A DNA stretch of 57,515 nt, taken from the NCBI GenBank assembly GCA_041592495.1, contig JBFHPZ010000001.1, positions 1-57,515 of the forward strand, written 5' to 3'. The position numbers were made by a program, and so were the translations under genes. Each line of letters begins with the position of its first letter. The stretch's first letter is position 1. The notes beneath the pieces are model-generated. The model saw only the letters and a list, made by a program, of their open reading frames with translations. It had not been told where the DNA came from and ran no database searches. This document shows, in pieces, positions 6,889 to 57,515 of the stretch. Source of the stretch: Gammaproteobacteria bacterium. GTDB taxonomy: Bacteria > Pseudomonadota > Gammaproteobacteria > SZUA-229.

Positions 6889-7668
6889 TTATTTCACCTT
6901 GCGGCGAGTAAGCCCGATGCCAAGCATGCCAAGTCCGAGTAAAGCCAGGATGCTGGGTTCGGGAACCTCATATGCCCCTTCAATAGTATCGTTACCGCAG
7001 GTCATTCCCCAGTGCAGTGCGATCTGATCGCTGGATAACAAGCTGGTTCCAGCAAGGTCAATGACAAAGCGCAAACTGTTGTCGTCGTAATTGCCATAAC
7101 GGCCGTAATCGATAGACCATGTGCCTTGGCTAATAGCGGTCTGGTTTTCTTCTTTAACGGAAATTTCCTGACCATTACGGTAAGTAACGCGAGGCTTGAA
7201 GAAACTGTCACTCATGAGTGCGTTGTCGGCATTGGTTGCACCGTTCAATTGATACAGTGTGCCTGTTCCACCATTTCCCCACTGGTTGTCCAGGGCGAAT
7301 GCATAAGTCCAGAGTGTGCCAGTGACGTTGTCGTCCTGGTAATAAGGAGCGTCACCATAGGGATTCCAGCTGCTGCTCAGGAAAAGATCGCCATATCCAA
7401 TTCCTTTGCCATTCTTAGTAGCCGAAGCGAATTCGCCATCGTCACCTCGGCCTGCAAAGTTGGTGTTGATGTTGACGTGTAAAGAAGTTCCAATCAGTCC
7501 AACATCCATGCTGAAAACCTGGAACTTATAGGTGCTGCCAATGACATCACCGTACCCATGATTTTCTGAGCCGATATAGGTATCGGCAATGGTTTGCATG
7601 CCGGCCTGGGTAGTAAAAGCGGCCGTGGATGCCGCAGCCAGAACAGCTAAAGATAGAATGTGTCGCAT
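6889..7668 (-). CDS. PEP-CTERM sorting-domain protein (predicted exosortase substrate)
   Basis: Signal peptide MRHILSLAVLAAASTAAFTTQA. The C-terminus is VPEPSILALLGLGMLGIGLTRRKVK*, i.e. a PEP motif, a hydrophobic helix and a basic tail. The track start 7677 is a GTG; ATG 7668 has AGGTG 6 nt upstream. Confidence 0.85.
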   Translation of the reverse strand: MRHILSLAVLAAASTAAFTTQAGMQTIADTYIGSENHGYGDVIGSTYKFQVFSMDVGLIGTSLHVNINTNFAGRGDDGEFASATKNGKGIGYGDLFLSSSWNPYGDAPYYQDDNVTGTLWTYAFALDNQWGNGGTGTLYQLNGATNADNALMSDSFFKPRVTYRNGQEISVKEENQTAISQGTWSIDYGRYGNYDDNSLRFVIDLAGTSLLSSDQIALHWGMTCGNDTIEGAYEVPEPSILALLGLGMLGIGLTRRKVK

Positions 7669-7706
7669 TGAATTCACCTAAATTTATGTACAACTTGTAA
7701 GTGTAT

Positions 7707-7723
7707 TTGCATTAGATGTGCCA
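7707..7723 (-). promoter_or_regulatory. Candidate sigma54 (-24/-12) promoter of the PEP-CTERM protein gene
   Basis: The minus strand reads TGGCAC-atcta-ATGCA, matching the consensus TGGCAC-N5-TTGCA with GG and GC at exact spacing. It lies about 40-55 nt upstream of the start codon and next to the sigma54-dependent regulator gene prsR. Confidence 0.55.
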
Positions 7724-7787
7724 ATTTCATGACGTTATTTAAAATCAAATAGTTACATGTGGTAGGCGATTTCCAGGTCTTTAATAT

Positions 7788-7804
7788 TGTAAAAAATCAT
7801 GACA
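7788..7804. promoter_or_regulatory. TGT-N11-ACA element (candidate enhancer-binding-protein site), about 100 bp upstream of the inferred sigma54 start
   Basis: tgtaaaaaatcatgaca. Its first 10 nt are identical to the element at 7988-8004. This is motif-level evidence only, in an AT-rich spacer. Confidence 0.2.
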
Positions 7805-7987
7805 ACAGCTGAATGGCTTATTACGAAAATATATTTAAATTACAGTTATTTAAGTAAAGAACGATATATTTACATAGGAATTAGCACTGTTATATTTGTA
7901 AATAAATCATGCCACATCAATAGTTATTTGATTTTATTGATAATTTTAGAAAATTACGTTTTCATAAAGTTTATACAAGAAAGTTAA

Positions 7988-8004
7988 TGTAAAAAATTTT
8001 TACA
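7988..8004. promoter_or_regulatory. Palindromic TGT-N11-ACA element upstream of prsK
   Basis: tgtaaaaa-a-tttttaca, an 8-1-8 palindrome exactly 200 bp from the related element at 7788. This is motif-level evidence only. Confidence 0.2.
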
Positions 8005-8052
8005 GTTACTACAATCTCGTTACCTTCGTTCCCAACCTAATAATATGAATAT

Positions 8053-10104
8053 ATGAATCTGGGTGTTATTTCATACTCACTGGCTGCAGCCGGTTATCTG
8101 GTGCTGCTGCTGCTGTTACTGACGAGTTGGAAAAACAGCCTCCAGGCGAGGTTGCTAACCCTGGTAGTGCTGGTGAGTGTGACCTGGGCGTATTCCGCGA
8201 TTCAGGTTGCGATCGGTGGCGATGGTTATTCATGGCTGTATGTCATAACGGAATCTCTGCGTTACGCCCTCTGGTATTTGTTCCTTCTAAAACTTTTCGA
8301 TCTCGATGTGGAGCAACGGAGCTATAAGCAATTCGCCCGTTGGGCGATTCCAGTGAGTGTGGGTTTTTCGGTTGTAGTGATTCTACTGGAAGTATCCCAG
8401 GTGTTGAGGATGCACTCGCTTAATTATGTCGGGCACGTGATCCTCTCCATTATCGGGCTTGCCATAATCGAACAGGTATACCGCAATACCTCCCAAAAGC
8501 ACCTTTGGGCAATCAAGTATCTCATCATTGGCTGTGGCGGCGTATTTGCCTACGACCTGTTCCTCTACTCACACGCGCTCTTATTTCGAGGGATTGATTT
8601 GCAGCTATGGGAGAGCCGTGGAGCGGTTCACCTGGTGATTATCCCAATGCTGGCAATTGCCGCAGCCCGCAATAAATCCTGGAGCATGAATATTTTTGTT
8701 TCCAGGGAGATTGTGCTTAAAACCTCGGCATTTTTCGGTGGCGGGATGTATTTGCTGGTAATGGCGCTGGCTGGTTATTATCTGCGCGAAGTGGGTGGGG
8801 AATGGGGGATGCTGACCCAGGCAGTATTTTTCACGCTCGCCGTGATTCTCCTGGTTTCGATTTTATTATCTGAACAATTCAGAGTTCAATCCAAAGTATT
8901 TCTGGCAAAGCATTTTTATAAAAACAAATACGATTACCGGGAAGAATGGCTTAACCTGACACGAGATCTTAGCCAGCAATTGAGCGTATCTTCACGTTAC
9001 ACCATCGTCATTCAAGTCCTCGCGCGAATGGTCGATGCAAGGGCGGGAATGATCTGGGTTCGCGACGAGAAGGGGGACTATCTGAACGCGGGAGTCTGGC
9101 AGACACCCAGAATGGACGATACTCTGTCCCCAAATCTACCACTTATTAACTATCTTGCTGAAAAGCGCTATATCGTCAATGTAAAAGAATTTGCAAATCA
9201 GCTGCCTGAATATGAAGATTTGAAGCTACCTCAGAATTTCAATGAGCTATCAAGGCTATGGTTGATCATCCCGTTATTCGATCAAAGGGAACTAATGGGG
9301 TTCGTCCTGTTGATGGATCCATTGGTGGAGAGGAATATCAATTGGGAAGATCGCGATCTGCTTAAAACGGCAAGCAAGCAAGTATCCAGCTTCCTGCTGA
9401 TGCATAAGCAATCAGAAGAGCTACTGGAAGCGAAACAGTTTGAAGTGTTCAATCGCTTGTCTGCTTTTATGGTCCATGATCTGAAAAATATTGCCGCCGA
9501 GCTTGAGCTTGTGGCAAAAAATGCTGAAAGATTTAAGGATAATCCAGATTTTATTGAAGATGCGTTCTCAACGGTGAGTAACGCGGCGGGTGACATTAAA
9601 AAGTTGCTTGATCATTTCAGAAAACGCCAACAAAGTGACGAGCGCAAGAGCCTTGTTGATTTAATCGATATTGTAAAAGATGCTGTCAGTTTGAAAAGTC
9701 AAAAACAGCCAGTGCCTGCGGTGAAAGCGCCGGGCGAACCCTGCTATGTTTCAGCCGAAAAAAACCGGCTGATTAATGTGATTGCTCATATAATCGATAA
9801 TGCACAGGAAGCAACGGCAGACTCGGGCAGTATCTGGGTGGGATTCAAGACTGAGGATTCGCGCCACTATGTCAGCATAAGCGATACTGGTCATGGCATG
9901 GATAAAGATTTCATCAATACACGCCTTTTCCGACCGTTCGATACCACCAAAGGCAATGCCGGCATGGGGATCGGTATGTTCGAGAGTCGGGACTATATTC
10001 GATCGATGGGTGGGGATATTCAAGTAGAGAGTGAGCCATCTGTTGGAACGACGATGAATATCTGGCTGCCCGTGGCTAGTCCTGCTTTACTTAAACAGCC
10101 GTAA
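8053..10104 (+). CDS. prsK: PEP-CTERM system sensor histidine kinase PrsK-type
   Basis: About 300 aa of polytopic membrane N-terminus, a GAF-like middle, the H-box FMVHDLKN and the ATPase motifs DNAQEA...DTGHGMD...GNAGMGIGM. The 683-aa length and the position directly upstream of prsR fit the PrsK family. Confidence 0.85.
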   Translation: MNLGVISYSLAAAGYLVLLLLLLTSWKNSLQARLLTLVVLVSVTWAYSAIQVAIGGDGYSWLYVITESLRYALWYLFLLKLFDLDVEQRSYKQFARWAIPVSVGFSVVVILLEVSQVLRMHSLNYVGHVILSIIGLAIIEQVYRNTSQKHLWAIKYLIIGCGGVFAYDLFLYSHALLFRGIDLQLWESRGAVHLVIIPMLAIAAARNKSWSMNIFVSREIVLKTSAFFGGGMYLLVMALAGYYLREVGGEWGMLTQAVFFTLAVILLVSILLSEQFRVQSKVFLAKHFYKNKYDYREEWLNLTRDLSQQLSVSSRYTIVIQVLARMVDARAGMIWVRDEKGDYLNAGVWQTPRMDDTLSPNLPLINYLAEKRYIVNVKEFANQLPEYEDLKLPQNFNELSRLWLIIPLFDQRELMGFVLLMDPLVERNINWEDRDLLKTASKQVSSFLLMHKQSEELLEAKQFEVFNRLSAFMVHDLKNIAAELELVAKNAERFKDNPDFIEDAFSTVSNAAGDIKKLLDHFRKRQQSDERKSLVDLIDIVKDAVSLKSQKQPVPAVKAPGEPCYVSAEKNRLINVIAHIIDNAQEATADSGSIWVGFKTEDSRHYVSISDTGHGMDKDFINTRLFRPFDTTKGNAGMGIGMFESRDYIRSMGGDIQVESEPSVGTTMNIWLPVASPALLKQP

Positions 10105-10121
10105 TCACAGGAAGTGAGGAG

Positions 10122-11495
10122 ATGAAAAACAATAACGAATGCCTGCTTGTCGTGGAAGATAATCCAGGTATCCAGAAGCAGCTTAAATGGTCATTTGATG
10201 GCTATGAGGTGCACCTGGCCGACGATCGGGAATCGGCGCTTGAATTGGTGAGAAAGCACAAGCCACAGGTGGTTACGCTCGATCTTGGGTTACCGCCAGA
10301 TCGGGAAAATGCGACCCAGGGCATTTTGGCCCTTGAGCAAATACTGGATGAACTCCCCGAATGCAAGGTCATAGTCGTCACAGGGAATGAAGACCGGGAA
10401 AATGCACTTACGGCAATCAAGCTTGGCGCCTATGATTTTTATCAAAAACCGATTGATCCCGATATTCTCAGACTGATAGTGGATCGCGCATTTAATTTAC
10501 ACGCAATAGAAGCCGAAAACCGAAAGCTTGGCAGGCAGAAACTTGATTCGCCGATCAGCCGGATATTAGGTTCAAGTCAGGCTATGCAGACTGCATTGCG
10601 GATGACCGAGAAAGTCGCCGCTTCAGATGCAACTGCCCTGGTGCAGGGAGAAAGCGGGACAGGTAAAGAGTTAATTGCCCGTGCTTTACATGAATTAAGT
10701 CAGCGCAGTGACGAACCCTTTGTGGCTATTAACTGTGCAGCGATTCCGCACGAACTGCTGGAAAGCGAATTATTCGGTTATGAGAAGGGGGCGTTTACCG
10801 GCGCTCATAAAACAACGCCAGGGAAAATTGAGCATGCCAATGGAGGAACCCTGTTCCTGGATGAGATTGGCGATATGCCAATGTCCTTGCAGGCCAAACT
10901 GTTGCGCTTTTTACAGGAGAGAGTTGTAGAAAGAATCGGTGGGCGACAGTCTATTCCTGTTGATATACGGATTGTCTGTGCAACTCATCGCGACCTGGAG
11001 AAGGCTATTCGCGATGGAGATTTCAGGGAAGATCTTTATTTTAGAATATCTGAAATAGTTATTAATGTTCCGCCATTGCGTGATCGGGAAGAGGATATTG
11101 TATTACTCGCGCAATATTTCCTCGATCAATTTTCTGCGGAAATGAAAAAACGTTTCAAAGGCTTCAGTTCGGCTGCCAAGCGTAAGTTGGATGAATATCA
11201 GTGGCCGGGGAATGTGCGGGAACTGGAAAACAAAATAAAAAGGGCGGTCATTCTCACGGAAGGTAACCGAGTTGAGCCGGAGGATCTCGGGTTTTCCGCG
11301 GGTGCCGGTAGTGGGGATATGCCCATGCAGAGTTCACTGAGCCTTAAAGCGGCAAGAGAGGCGGTGGAGAGGAAAGTTATCAAGCAGGCACTGACTGTCT
11401 ATGAAAATAATTACTCCAAGGCGGCTGAAGCACTGGAGATCAGCAGGCCGTCGTTGTATAGCCTGTTAAAGAAACTGGGTATGGATGAGGCCTAG
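10122..11495 (+). CDS. prsR: PEP-CTERM-box sigma54-dependent response regulator PrsR-type
   Basis: Receiver domain (LLVVEDNPGI...VTLDLGLPP). AAA+ sigma54-interaction motifs GESGTGKE and GAFTGA (YEKGAFTGA). C-terminal Fis-type HTH YSKAAEALEISRPSLYSLLKKLG. Confidence 0.9.
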   Translation: MKNNNECLLVVEDNPGIQKQLKWSFDGYEVHLADDRESALELVRKHKPQVVTLDLGLPPDRENATQGILALEQILDELPECKVIVVTGNEDRENALTAIKLGAYDFYQKPIDPDILRLIVDRAFNLHAIEAENRKLGRQKLDSPISRILGSSQAMQTALRMTEKVAASDATALVQGESGTGKELIARALHELSQRSDEPFVAINCAAIPHELLESELFGYEKGAFTGAHKTTPGKIEHANGGTLFLDEIGDMPMSLQAKLLRFLQERVVERIGGRQSIPVDIRIVCATHRDLEKAIRDGDFREDLYFRISEIVINVPPLRDREEDIVLLAQYFLDQFSAEMKKRFKGFSSAAKRKLDEYQWPGNVRELENKIKRAVILTEGNRVEPEDLGFSAGAGSGDMPMQSSLSLKAAREAVERKVIKQALTVYENNYSKAAEALEISRPSLYSLLKKLGMDEA

Positions 11496-53886: not shown

Positions 53887-54020
53887 ATCTATAACTTATT
53901 GTTATTAATAGGCTCAATATTTTTTTACAGCGTCATTTAGTTGGCGCTCGCGTCAAAACCTGTTAGTCTCCAGTGACAACAATATCTTTCATGGGGAGTA
54001 AGCCCGCCAGGGTGATCGAA

Positions 54021-55748
54021 ATGCCGCGCATCATCGCAATAACCAGTGGCAAGGGGGGGGTTGGTAAAACCAATCTCAGTGTCAATCTTGCCTCGGCCCT
54101 CGCCAGGGCTGGTCAACGGGTTGTTCTCCTGGATGCCGATCTCGGCCTGGCGAATGCCAATATCCTGCTCGACTTCAAGCCGGAACAAACCCTGGAAGAC
54201 GTGCTCGATGGTACCTGTAATCTCCCCGATATTCTGATTCCTGCCATGGATAACCTGTGGGTGATTCCGGGCAGCTCCGGTATCCAGCGCATGGCGCATG
54301 CCGCCCCCGAGGAACTTGCGAAGCTGAGCGAGGCTTTTGCCTCCATGGATCCGTTCGATTACTTCCTCATTGATACATCATCGGGCATTGCGGATAACGT
54401 CATCAAACTGGTGCTGGCCGCGCGCGAGACCTTGTTGGTTATGACGCCGGAACCAACGTCGCTGACTGATGGCTATGCCATGTTAAAGCTGCTGAAACAA
54501 TCGGACTATGCGGGCGATGTCCAGGTGGTCATCAATGCGGCGCGCAGCAAGACGCTGGCGGAAAGGACATTCGACAAGTTTCGTGCCGTGGCCCGTTCCT
54601 ACCTGCAGCTTGATGTCAGCATGATTGCGCATATTCCCTATGATCCGCGTTTGCCAGAGTCTGTCCGCGAGCAGGTGCCGTTGGTGGTGCAGCACCCTTA
54701 TGCACCGGCCTCCGGTGCGATCAACAAGCTGGCCGATACGCTCATCACACAAGACAGTATGCATCTGCAGTCCGAGCTGGATAGTTTCTGGCGGCAACTT
54801 GCGCCTGTCCCCGCGGACGACCAGGAAACTGTTGCCGAGAGTGCGCCTGTCGAGGAATCGCCAGCCACGCCAGATACGGTGAGTGAAACGCCCGAAACTC
54901 GCCGGTCCATGCGTGAGATGGAAGCCTTCATTGAGCGCATGGATTCCAAACTGGATGAACTTTTGAGCAAGATCGATCAGTTAACCGAACAGGTCGCGCA
55001 AACGTCAACAGCTCCTACCGTGCCTGAGCCAGTCACACAACCGCAGGTTATCTCGGAGTTCGAGGCCAATCTGCAGCGTCGAGGCCAACAAAGCCGCCGG
55101 GGCGGGGTACGACGCAACCTGCGGGCGGCGCCAATAGACCATGTTGAATTGCGTCGTGTTCTGGGACGAATGATTACCAAGGTTCACGAGGATAGCGTTA
55201 ATGGTCTGGTAAGAGTGGATATGGCGGATAAAAAGATAGCCGATTCCAATGAGCTGCGGCTCAAGCCAGGATTTTATTCAACCGTTAGCCTGATTTTCGA
55301 ACGCCAGGACCATCCTGATTACCTCGTGGAAGAAGTGCTGGAAACCTGTAATGTCGAGGGTTGTCAGGTGCAGTCAATCGGCTCAGAAAGACGCTACTGG
55401 TTAACCTGTGATGGCGATGGTGCGATTTACCTGCGGCCTTCAGATGAAAATAAACTCACTATTGAATTTTATCTGCCCAAGGGCGGCGACACGGAGAGAT
55501 TATTACAGACCGGTCGTCCAGAGGTGCCGGTGCTCAAACCCGAGAAACGTGCCACGGCCTCGCATGACGAGCATCGGGTTTCAGAACTAACTGCACGGTA
55601 TCAATCGCTACTGCGGCCAGAAGGCGAGAGCGACGCCGGGGTGAGCTTCTATCGTCTCGAACGTGAACGGCCGCCAGCTGTGGTTTTTGCATTTTCTGAG
55701 AGGGAAAAGAAGCAGGAAGCAGACTTTGAATCGGCAGCGGATTTTTGA
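54021..55748 (+). CDS. MinD/ParA-family ATPase with a roughly 320-aa C-terminal extension (acidic linker, coiled coil, PilZ-like motif pair)
   Basis: Deviant Walker A IIAITSGKGGVGKT, plus VVLLDADLGLAN and FLIDTSSG. ATG 54021 is preceded by AGGGTG; the track start 53973 is a GTG. The extension contains RRNLR (55110-55124) and, 21 aa later, EDSVNG (55188-55205). Confidence 0.7.
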   Translation: MPRIIAITSGKGGVGKTNLSVNLASALARAGQRVVLLDADLGLANANILLDFKPEQTLEDVLDGTCNLPDILIPAMDNLWVIPGSSGIQRMAHAAPEELAKLSEAFASMDPFDYFLIDTSSGIADNVIKLVLAARETLLVMTPEPTSLTDGYAMLKLLKQSDYAGDVQVVINAARSKTLAERTFDKFRAVARSYLQLDVSMIAHIPYDPRLPESVREQVPLVVQHPYAPASGAINKLADTLITQDSMHLQSELDSFWRQLAPVPADDQETVAESAPVEESPATPDTVSETPETRRSMREMEAFIERMDSKLDELLSKIDQLTEQVAQTSTAPTVPEPVTQPQVISEFEANLQRRGQQSRRGGVRRNLRAAPIDHVELRRVLGRMITKVHEDSVNGLVRVDMADKKIADSNELRLKPGFYSTVSLIFERQDHPDYLVEEVLETCNVEGCQVQSIGSERRYWLTCDGDGAIYLRPSDENKLTIEFYLPKGGDTERLLQTGRPEVPVLKPEKRATASHDEHRVSELTARYQSLLRPEGESDAGVSFYRLERERPPAVVFAFSEREKKQEADFESAADF

Positions 55749-55897
55749 GGGTAGGGTTGGTTCGGGCTCTGCTGCTATTTCAAAGGATAAAATAGTTGCT
55801 GATGAAAAAGGACTGAGTAGTCCGAGAATAATGAGAGTGGGGTAGTTATTTTGTTAACTTTTCCCTGAAGAAAAAATAATTAAAACGGGAGTCTACT

Positions 55898-57515
55898 GTG
55901 AAAAGATCTCAAATAAACATTTTCTGTGTAAGTCTGTTCTTCTCGCCTGTCTCTCAGGCAACTCAGTTAAGTACCAGTTATGACATCCACGTGCTTGGTT
56001 TTACGGATTCGGAACATACCCGAGAAACCGATGGTTATCGATATAGTAATTACAACTATCTGAATGAGGCGGGTCAGGTGGCCGGTTATGCCAACCGCTA
56101 CGGCGCGGGCGGAACTAACTTGGGTGGAAGTGCCTGGTTGTATAACGGCAGCAGCACGGTCAATATTGGATTCACCGATGCCGAGCATACTCGAATTACT
56201 GACGGCTATCGCTATAGCTCAACCAGTCAAATGAACGATGTGGGCCAGGTAGCCGGGAGTTCGTATCGCTATGGGGCTGACGGTGCCAGCTTGGGTTTTA
56301 GTGCCTGGCTGTACAATGGCATCAGCACGGTCAACATTGGCCTCACCGATGCCGAGCACACTCGAGATACCAATGGTTTCCGGAGTAGCTCTATCAGTGT
56401 ACTGAACGAAGCCGGCCAGGTGTCCGGTTATTCTAGCCGCCACGGGGCGGGTGGTACCGACCTGGGTTTTAGTGCCTGGTTGTATAACGGCAGCAGCACC
56501 GTCAACATCGGCCTCACCGATGCCGAGCATACACGCGTTACCGACGGCTATCGGTATACTGACATCAGACATATGAATGAAGTGGGGCACGTGGCTGGTA
56601 TTGCCTATCGCTATGGAGTGGGCGGAACTGACCTGGGAAAAAGCGTCTGGCTCTACAACAGCGGCGGTACGGTGAACATTGGTCTGATTGATACGGAGCA
56701 CACACGTGTTAACGATGGCTATCGTGAAAGTTACATCCGCCAAATGAACGAGGCTGGCCAGGTGGCCGGAGATGCTACTCGTTATGGAGTGGGTGGCGCG
56801 TACCAGGGTAAAAGTGCATGGCTCTATAGTGGTGGCACTACGGTAAACATAGGTCTGACTGATCAAGAGCACACTGACGGCTCCGATGGTCTTCGATATA
56901 GCAGCATTAGCCAAATGAACGAGGCGGGCCAGGTGGCCGGAACTTCTTATCGCTACTCAACTCGAGGAGGAATTCAAGGCCAAAGCGCCTGGCTATACGG
57001 TGGTGGCAGTACCGTAAATATTGGATTGACCGATGCCGAGCACACTAGGATTAGTGATGGCTATCGTAGTAGTTCTATCAACCAAATGAACGAGGCAGGT
57101 CAGGTAGCAGGTGACGCAGAACGCTTTGGTGCAAATGGCTGGAGCTTAGGAAAAAGTGCCTGGCTCTACAGCGGGGACAGCACGGTGAGCATTGGCCTGA
57201 CTGATGCAGAACATACCCGTGACACTGACGGTCTTCAGGCAAACTCTATCAACCGGATGAACGAGGCGGGCCAGGTAACCGGGTATGCTTCCCGCTACGG
57301 GGTGGGTGGCAAGTACCTGGGACGAAGCGCCTGGCTTTACAGTGATGGAAGTGCAGTGGAAGTGGGTCTTACAGATGCCGAGCGCACTCGGGACACTGAC
57401 GGCTACAGGGATAGCACCATCAGTAAATTGAACGAATTGGGCCAAGTGGCCGGTGTTGCAAATCGTTATGGTGCAGGCGGTACCAATCTGGGTCAAAGTG
57501 CTTGGTTTTACGACC
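55898..57515 (+). CDS. Secreted tandem-repeat protein (HAF-like extracellular repeats), 3' end outside the window
   Basis: GTG 55898 lies 6 nt after GGGAG. The N-terminus VKRSQINIFCVSLFFSPVSQA|TQ looks like a signal peptide. The frame stays open to the window edge (539 codons, no stop). It is missing from the ORF track because it has no stop. Confidence 0.75.
   Translation, partial: MKRSQINIFCVSLFFSPVSQATQLSTSYDIHVLGFTDSEHTRETDGYRYSNYNYLNEAGQVAGYANRYGAGGTNLGGSAWLYNGSSTVNIGFTDAEHTRITDGYRYSSTSQMNDVGQVAGSSYRYGADGASLGFSAWLYNGISTVNIGLTDAEHTRDTNGFRSSSISVLNEAGQVSGYSSRHGAGGTDLGFSAWLYNGSSTVNIGLTDAEHTRVTDGYRYTDIRHMNEVGHVAGIAYRYGVGGTDLGKSVWLYNSGGTVNIGLIDTEHTRVNDGYRESYIRQMNEAGQVAGDATRYGVGGAYQGKSAWLYSGGTTVNIGLTDQEHTDGSDGLRYSSISQMNEAGQVAGTSYRYSTRGGIQGQSAWLYGGGSTVNIGLTDAEHTRISDGYRSSSINQMNEAGQVAGDAERFGANGWSLGKSAWLYSGDSTVSIGLTDAEHTRDTDGLQANSINRMNEAGQVTGYASRYGVGGKYLGRSAWLYSDGSAVEVGLTDAERTRDTDGYRDSTISKLNELGQVAGVANRYGAGGTNLGQSAWFYD
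55988..57515 (+). repeat. At least 9 tandem copies of an exact 171-bp (57-aa) coding repeat
   Basis: The landmark agYgcNtggYt (S-A/V-W-L/F) recurs at 56129, 56300, 56471, 56642, 56813, 56984, 57155, 57326 and 57497, always 171 bp apart. Consensus: SAWLYxGxSTVNIGLTDAEHTRxTDGYRxSSIxQMNEAGQVAGxxxRYGxGGxxLGx. Confidence 0.9.

Follow-up and report, generated by a model that had tools for sequence, protein, structure and literature searches.

What is encoded at the end of contig JBFHPZ010000001.1 of the gammaproteobacterial assembly GCA_041592495.1 (GTDB lineage SZUA-229)? In the program-made list of open reading frames (ORFs) for this stretch of 57,515 nucleotides, hereafter the window, the terminal region is represented by three minus-strand ORFs, while the plus strand there stays open to the contig end and encodes a tandem array of 57-residue units. 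A first-pass annotation, made from the sequence alone, had taken the plus-strand frame for the gene of a HAF-type repeat protein that is probably an exosortase substrate. The analysis reported here found that the gene is real and that it is an ordinary member of a large, functionally uncharacterised family. The explanation that best accounts for the whole, and that is likely to be right, is a secreted beta-propeller that is sorted by an exosortase and delivered as a binder to the cell surface or the exopolysaccharide (EPS) layer.

Coding strand and repeat array

The plus-strand frame that begins at GTG 55898 runs without a stop through 539 codons up to the contig end (ORF 55898..57514, 539 aa), and both this frame and the GGGAG located 6 nt upstream of its start codon were found as the first-pass annotation had described them. 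The mismatches from one repeat unit to another fall on positions 1, 2 and 3 of the plus-strand codons in proportions of 0.26, 0.24 and 0.54, respectively; this third-position-biased variation among the units indicates that selection acts on the plus frame. The three minus-strand ORFs (Table 1) were likewise found where they had been listed, and they turned out to be artefacts. Their length (up to 231 aa) and their presence in the ORF track would speak for at least one of them being a real gene. However, all three lie exactly in the codon-complement frame, in which just 5 stops occur because the sense strand has just 5 TTA, CTA or TCA codons in 539, and this scarcity explains their openness. 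In addition, their would-be wobble position is the least variable and their first position the most variable, a Pfam search of the three ORFs matched no family, and the plus frame has hundreds of homologues. The probability that any of them is a gene is therefore negligible; it is the plus frame that encodes a protein, with the three minus-strand ORFs as its shadows. The ORF track had dropped open-ended frames and shown the three antisense shadows instead, so the real gene stayed hidden, and the same artefact will recur at the contig ends of fragmented assemblies.

The array itself is strictly periodic. The autocorrelation of the protein sequence peaks at 0.61 at a lag of 57, and a hidden Markov model (HMM) of the unit finds nine contiguous units at 84-113 bits each, i.e., eight full units and a ninth that is cut at residue 50, each exactly 57 aa (171 nt) in register and none with an indel. 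The earlier description of at least nine units of 171 bp without indels thus stands, with the qualifications that the ninth is incomplete and that nine is the usual number in the family. Identity between units is 54-72% in protein and 60-73% in DNA, and Tandem Repeats Finder (period 171, 4.4 copies) sees part of the array only, because the nucleotide identity of the units is no higher than this.

A family consensus was derived from an alignment of 66 members. It consists, in order, of a signal peptide, an N-terminal 'YxI' strand (YxIxxxGLxDxEHT), nine units, a divergent module of ~120 aa and '...AYLLTP..VPxP...', and its unit reads G-L-T-D-x-E-H-T-R-x-D-G-Y...L-N-E-A-G-Q-V-x-G-x-S-x-R-Y-x-G....L-G-x-S-A-W-L-Y-x-G..T..I. 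The consensus leaves the canonical repeat at 'GQxAWxYD', where it switches to the divergent module, and the last residues of the window, GQSAWFYD, fall exactly at this switch point. Since the window ends there, and since a median of 142 residues follows the aligned end point in 115 relatives, the canonical array is complete and ~430 nt of the gene are missing. Among 153 complete relatives, nine canonical units are the mode (74 proteins), followed by eight (43) and ten (22). The spacing of units in relatives is mostly 55-57 aa, most commonly 56, and the uniform 57 aa is a feature of the window copy. Units are more alike within a protein (identity of 0.64 in the window protein and 0.75-0.76 in the relatives P0014 and P0020) than between proteins (0.50-0.59), indicating that the blades evolve in concert or have been re-amplified lineage by lineage, at a number that remains close to nine. 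Moreover, the best match of a unit of the window protein is not the unit of the same number in P0014, P0020 or P0005, i.e., there is no positional orthology.

The window is the entire contig (C1:1-57515), and thus the open 3' end is the end of the assembly rather than a choice of window. The assembly comprises 599 contigs with an N50 of 5.9 kb and is ~85% complete. The rest of the gene is absent from it: DNA and protein searches return the window copy only, and tblastn with the last 150 aa of 20 close relatives returned only the sorting-signal tails of unrelated proteins, e.g., that of ORF C179:809-1675, a small secreted protein that shares just the tail. A contig that ends within the gene in so fragmented an assembly could point to a decaying or truncated gene copy or to a misassembled repeat, from which no full-length protein would be made, and the composition of the gene is also somewhat deviant (GC 0.53 vs. 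0.465 for the genome; correlation of synonymous codon usage with long genomic ORFs 0.71 vs. ~0.80-0.84 for neighbouring genes). However, the 539 codons contain neither a stop nor a frameshift, the start codon, ribosome-binding site and signal peptide are intact, the strong third-position bias speaks against decay, and all nine units match the unit HMM, with the end of the array in register with the family consensus. Such a defective copy is very unlikely.

Table 1. Features of the repeat-protein gene, its antisense shadows and the exosortase gene in the window (aa, amino acids; nt, nucleotides).
Feature	Position	Strand	Remarks
Repeat-protein gene	55898..57515	+	539 codons, GTG start; 3' end cut by contig end, ~142 codons missing
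Shine-Dalgarno-like GGGAG	55887..55891	+	6-nt spacer to GTG 55898; read from sequence
Sec signal peptide (predicted)	55898..55960	+	aa 1-21, MKRSQ / INIFCVSLFF / SPVSQA, cleavage before TQ; read by eye
N-terminal segment SYDIHVL	55976..55996	+	homologous to blade outer strand; predicted 'velcro' strand for the last, missing blade
Eight complete 171-nt units	55997..57364	+	starts 55997, 56168, 56339, 56510, 56681, 56852, 57023, 57194; four-stranded blades (DSSP on AlphaFold model)
Ninth unit, 50/57 residues	57365..57514	+	ends GQSAWFYD at contig end; aligns with consensus GQxAWxYD
Shadow ORF, 73 aa	55967..56188	-	codon-complement frame, no Pfam match
Shadow ORF, 231 aa	56219..56914	-	codon-complement frame, no Pfam match
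Shadow ORF, 116 aa	57146..57496	-	codon-complement frame, no Pfam match
Exosortase, 503 aa	40280..41791	-	XrtA-like with C-terminal extension; only TIGR04178 match in genome, 54 bits

Family of the repeat protein

The only curated model matched by the window protein is NCBIfam TIGR05002 (38.7 bits, E=7e-10), the 'choice-of-anchor tandem repeat NxxGxxAF-containing protein'. With its 57 positions, the profile accounts for the 57-aa unit and the tandem period of ~57 residues. Several observations count against a straightforward assignment to any of the curated repeat families. The match stays below the curated cut-off of TIGR05002 (50 bits), and single units of the window protein score 12-15 bits, with matches that span profile positions 7-43 only. 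No Pfam family was matched by the window protein, including PF11949 (DUF3466), which gave no match at E<=10 (gathering threshold 25.1 bits). Likewise, the HAF model TIGR02913 (cut-off 22.65 bits) matched neither the window protein at E<=10 nor anything else in the genome, and the ~39-40-residue unit with a HAF motif is not the unit seen here, which is 57 aa long and has SAW(L/F)Y as the equivalent motif.

The relatives place these negative results in context. Those that pass HAF, DUF3466 or TIGR05002 share 50-58% identity with the window protein: P0014 (49.9 bits), P0030 (56.6), P0009 (27.7) and P0052 (23.7) exceed the HAF cut-off with summed scores, P0014 (65.0), P0030 (64.9) and P0002 (47.7) match DUF3466, and P0014 passes TIGR05002 at 55.2 bits. 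Since relatives this similar variously pass all three, the three models overlap, describing a single repeat superfamily in which the window protein, judged by these similarities, is a divergent member. The HAF-type repeat recognised by the first-pass annotation was thus right at the level of the superfamily, while the HMM check that it had proposed came out negative for the window protein itself, which another repeat model, TIGR05002, fits better.

The comparison with each of the three models shows both shared and distinct features. TIGR05002, too, describes secreted proteins that carry tandem arrays and end in different C-terminal anchors; the motif there is NxxGxxAF, whereas that of the window protein is NEAGQVAG. 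HAF proteins share N-x-x-G-Q-V-x-G followed by an aromatic-hydrophobic core as well as a frequent PEP-CTERM ending; they differ in the length of the model (39 positions vs. the 57-aa unit) and in HAFLW, for which the window protein has SAWLY, plus a conserved GLTDxEHTRxDGY loop. DUF3466, the label of most relatives, denotes secreted proteins of ~600-700 aa of uncharacterised function; its Vibrio and Shewanella members use GlyGly-CTERM and rhombosortase rather than an exosortase signal (PMC3237569), and a DUF3466 protein of Photobacterium is among the abundant vesicle or secreted proteins (PMC10049053).

The family is large. A word-indexed search returned 523 homologues at E<=1e-3, the best with 50-58% identity, and an exhaustive search returned 839 clusters (50% identity), of which 460 reach E<=1e-30. 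The homologues are mostly 600-850 aa long, are labelled DUF3466 or 'PEP-CTERM sorting domain-containing', and come from Pirellulales, other Planctomycetota and Gammaproteobacteria. The 'large' substrate of the first-pass annotation is therefore of ordinary size, with relatives of ~660-700 aa. The distribution is patchy: the gene is present in 1 of 24 genomes of the same family and, at E<=1e-10, in none of 300 other genomes sampled from the class, and a scan of genome contigs returned one metagenome-assembled genome of Phycisphaerales. Together with the GC content of the gene, this distribution is weakly suggestive of horizontal acquisition; the deviating GC and codon usage are a weak hint, which may reflect either a foreign origin or an effect of biased repeat composition.

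The one homologue in a genome of the same family (G006) is a 670-aa protein encoded at 8818-10830 (-) of contig C89 (locus L011), near genes for form II RuBisCO and the Entner-Doudoroff pathway. Just downstream of it, at 7440-8691 (-), SxDGGxxW (Asp-box/BNR-like) motifs abound in two ORFs that adjoin or overlap each other; from their sequence, these ORFs may represent a second, frameshifted secreted propeller protein.

Predicted fold

Structures were predicted by AlphaFold2 with the family alignment, strands were assigned by DSSP, and the models were compared with the PDB by Foldseek. The window protein was modelled with a mean predicted local distance difference test (pLDDT) of 94.6 and a predicted template-modelling score (pTM) of 0.88, with four strands per unit, and the top matches listed by Foldseek were all beta-propellers (sialidases, fucose lectins, prolyl-oligopeptidase propellers and the nine-bladed eIF3b), at template-modelling (TM) scores of 0.2-0.3. 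The units are thus confidently predicted to fold as four-stranded propeller blades, and the beta-propeller that the first-pass annotation had offered as a guess is borne out by these models. When the family profile was searched against PDB sequences, nothing matched at E<=1.

The model of the full-length relative P0005 (55% identical; pLDDT 92.9, pTM 0.88) shows what may follow beyond the contig end. It contains 44 strands (11 x 4): a single strand at the N-terminus is followed by ten blades of four strands each and by a last blade of three, after which comes a transmembrane helix at residues 672-693. By homology, the N-terminal strand corresponds to a blade's outer strand and, like 'TVNI' in each unit, it precedes GLxDxEHT. 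In P0005 this segment is a strand at ~98 pLDDT, whereas the truncated model of the window protein has no strand there; its formation in the full-length model alone fits an 11-bladed ring with a 'velcro' closure, in which the N-terminal strand would pair with the last blade. The best Foldseek matches of P0005 are the ten-bladed Vps10p domains of sortilin and SorCS2 (TM 0.38-0.40), and two-propeller proteins such as DDB1 and GH74 score 0.12-0.21. The Vps10p domains (PDB 5mri, 6fg9) likewise form one very large ring of four-stranded blades, and the score extends over ~700 columns; they differ in having 10 rather than 11 blades, ~9% identity, a eukaryotic origin, Asp-box blades and a 10CC module, and a TM score of 0.4 is a loose resemblance.

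The blades could instead be arranged in an open beta-solenoid or fibre, or in two separate propellers. Ring closure and the number of blades are deduced from strand counts and Foldseek scores, among which a TM score of 0.4 is no strong match and the window model stays at 0.2-0.3, and no solved propeller has 11 blades, the architecture being so far predicted only (CATH v4.4, PMC11701635). However, the copy number is centred on nine canonical units (74, 43 and 22 relatives with nine, eight and ten), which is what a closed ring requires and what an open array would not. The strands also add up to 11 x 4 without remainder, as the single N-terminal strand would complement a last blade of three, at a pTM of 0.88, and the single-ring, ten-bladed sortilin fits about twice as well as the double-propeller proteins. 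A single closed ring is, on these models, the somewhat better-supported arrangement, and an open or divided one is unlikely. An '11-bladed beta-propeller' has been described from the AlphaFold DB as a new, still hypothetical architecture (TED, bioRxiv 10.1101/2024.03.18.585509; CATH v4.4, PMC11701635); it has the same predicted blade number and is also a prediction, and the text of these papers gives no accession by which it could be matched to the present family.

Sorting signal, exosortase and presumed function

The C-terminal signals of 120 relatives were examined with a rule that combines a proline motif, a hydrophobic stretch and a basic tail. A PEP-CTERM-type signal was found in 100 of the 120 by the strict version of the rule and in ~107 by the looser one, and several of the signal-less relatives are visibly truncated, frameshifted or over-extended records. 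The tails occur in two flavours, VPEPS...RRR and VP(V/I/L)P(A/P)AxWLFGSGLxGL...RRKK. The VPxPAAxWLF flavour is found in 9 of the 10 best-scoring relatives and in 13 of the top 15; with the VPLPA-CTERM model TIGR03370, P0005 reaches 32.5 bits, above the cut-off of 25.35, and the sole homologue in the same-family genome G006 ends VPVPAAIWLFGSGLFGLLLIGRTRRHVQ. The genome of the window itself encodes twelve ORFs with the VP(V/I/L)PAAxWLF...RRKK flavour (contigs C6, C7, C12, C14, C105, C169, C173, C179, C203, C208 and C408) and one with VPEPS. These own-genome tails score above the cut-offs of VPLPA-CTERM, PEP-CTERM or both, and they are similar to that of the Zoogloea floc protein PepA. Among the 120 relatives, one passenger is combined with different anchors (PEP-type, VPxP-type, dockerin-like and other), the swapped tails including a dockerin-like DxDxDxNGDG repeat (P0114) and, among P0008/P0063 and P0042, a Cys-containing module or an FG-GAP-like segment.

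Based on the tails of the relatives and of the own-genome substrates, the window copy probably carries an exosortase-type tail, and its signal is likely of the VPxPAAxWLF...RRKK, VPLPA-CTERM-like form. The expectation that such repeat proteins end in a PEP-CTERM signal thus holds, in that the relatives nearly always end in a PEP-CTERM-type signal; the literal VPEP is, by contrast, not the likely flavour. Two features of PEP-CTERM substrates are present. The first is a signal peptide, read by eye from the sequence, whose N-terminal charge, hydrophobic core and small-x-small pattern are those of a Sec signal peptide and which appears as a low-confidence N-terminal helix in the AlphaFold model. 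The second is an exosortase in the same genome, which passes the general exosortase models (e.g., 122 bits with 8TM_EpsH, above the cut-off of 105.55) and whose contig also carries the XrtA/PEP-CTERM-system EPS genes TIGR03013 and TIGR03027. One exosortase may serve both signal flavours. With the XrtW profile, the exosortase aligns along almost all of its 503 aa, at 156 bits, far below the cut-off of 425. The lone VPEPS protein is encoded in the window at 6889-7677 (-), beside regulators and the sole sigma-54 site that stands out, a one-mismatch site at 7708-7723, which lies before another gene.

The closest known systems are those of PEP- or VPLPA-CTERM substrates such as the Zoogloea flocculation protein PepA (NF033554). 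The tails of relatives and own-genome substrates match TIGR03370, TIGR02595 and the PepA tail, and here, as in PepA-type systems, an exosortase and EPS genes stand on the same contig. The differences are that the passenger domain is unrelated to that of PepA, that the window gene lies outside the EPS operon and that its tail lies beyond the contig.

Several points weigh against sorting by this exosortase and delivery to the EPS layer. The C-terminus of the window copy is beyond the contig and not in the assembly, its sorting signal being read from relatives only. The best specific model of the exosortase, XrtA, reaches 185 bits and not its cut-off of 208, and the VPLPA-specific XrtD gives 76 bits vs. 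a cut-off of 400, though most substrates look VPLPA-like. The repeat gene stands outside the EPS operon, separated from the EPS genes by five unrelated genes (TatD, a CbiM-like protein, ArsJ, thioredoxin and a MinD-like ATPase), and the neighbourhoods of the relatives P0014 and P0005 are unrelated to it and are not EPS loci. Functional experiments on any member of the family were not found in the literature searched.

The same propeller might also use another anchor or none, being soluble, dockerin-like or of the GlyGly-CTERM type, and would then be no exosortase substrate. The best-matching model, TIGR05002, explicitly allows a choice of anchor, ~13 of the 120 relatives have no recognisable signal, some, such as P0114 with its dockerin-like tail and P0008/P0063 with a different one, have other C-terminal modules, and a DUF3466 protein of Shewanella carries GlyGly-CTERM (PMC3237569). 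However, the VPxPAAxWLF signal is present in nearly all of the closest relatives and in twelve other proteins of the same genome, which also encodes an exosortase; no rhombosortase was found in the assembly (~85% complete), and several of the 'signal-less' relatives are defective records. An anchor other than the exosortase-type tail is thus improbable, and sorting by an exosortase is the preferred reading.

In the proposed mechanism, the fragment in the window would represent the 5' four-fifths of the gene, and its product would be exported by Sec. The full-length form would consist of nine units, two divergent blades, a short linker and a C-terminal sorting signal with its proline motif, membrane helix and basic tail, i.e., 11 blades by strand count in a ring that is probably closed by the N-terminal strand joining the last blade. 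The missing ~142 residues would most likely carry the VP(V/I/L)PAAxWLF...RRKK form of the PEP-CTERM signal, the C-terminal helix of which would hold the protein in the inner membrane until the XrtA-like exosortase, encoded 14 kb upstream, cleaves at the proline motif; the functional link between this exosortase and the repeat protein is inferred. The mature protein would then reach the cell surface or the exopolysaccharide layer, in either a released or an attached form.

The predicted ring also suggests where binding might take place. The conserved polar GLTDxEHTRxDGY loop would run from a blade's outer strand to the inner strand of the following blade and, repeated ten times, would line one face of the ring beside the variable loop between strands 2 and 3, and this face could be a multivalent binding surface, most likely for polysaccharide. 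Propellers serve many functions. The structural neighbours include lectins and glycosidases, which lends weak support to polysaccharide binding, and multivalent binding of this kind is put forward only tentatively, from the model. The full combination, i.e., a closed 11-bladed ring with a velcro strand, an exosortase tether, multivalent binding of the organism's own EPS and blades that are homogenised or re-amplified, is rather doubtful as a whole.

The surroundings of the gene were inspected as well. The upstream gene at 53973-55748 (+) encodes an ATPase of the MinD/ParA type, which reaches 120-142 bits with MinD models, short of the cut-off, and has a ~320-aa C-terminal extension and weak similarity to XrtA-associated tyrosine autokinase models. 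The 149-nt intergenic region contains three sigma-70-like sites (0.7 expected from shuffles), among them a promoter candidate TTGTTA-18-AATAAT (9/12) at 55851-55880 (+), whose closeness to the start codon would make for a very short leader. A sigma-54 promoter TGGTTCGGGCTCTGCT at ~55757, proposed by eye, was rejected, as the three-mismatch pattern occurs at 275 sites vs. 274.7 expected by chance. Cyclic di-GMP riboswitches have been reported in front of VPLPA/PEP-CTERM genes (PMC12530212); a riboswitch sought in the 149-nt leader gave no Rfam match at E<=1.

The locus itself is unsurprising; what adds some modest interest is the 11-bladed ring predicted for its product, together with the concerted evolution of the blades. 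If the proposed structure is true, such a ring would have a blade number without a solved example, one that CATH v4.4 lists as a hypothetical architecture only. The repeat protein adds one candidate cargo to the exosortase system of the organism and ties three separately curated repeat models (HAF, DUF3466 and NxxGxxAF) to one fold. Its family, which comprises hundreds of sequence clusters and represents widespread surface proteins of planctomycetes and uncultured proteobacteria, is confidently predicted to form an unusually large propeller.

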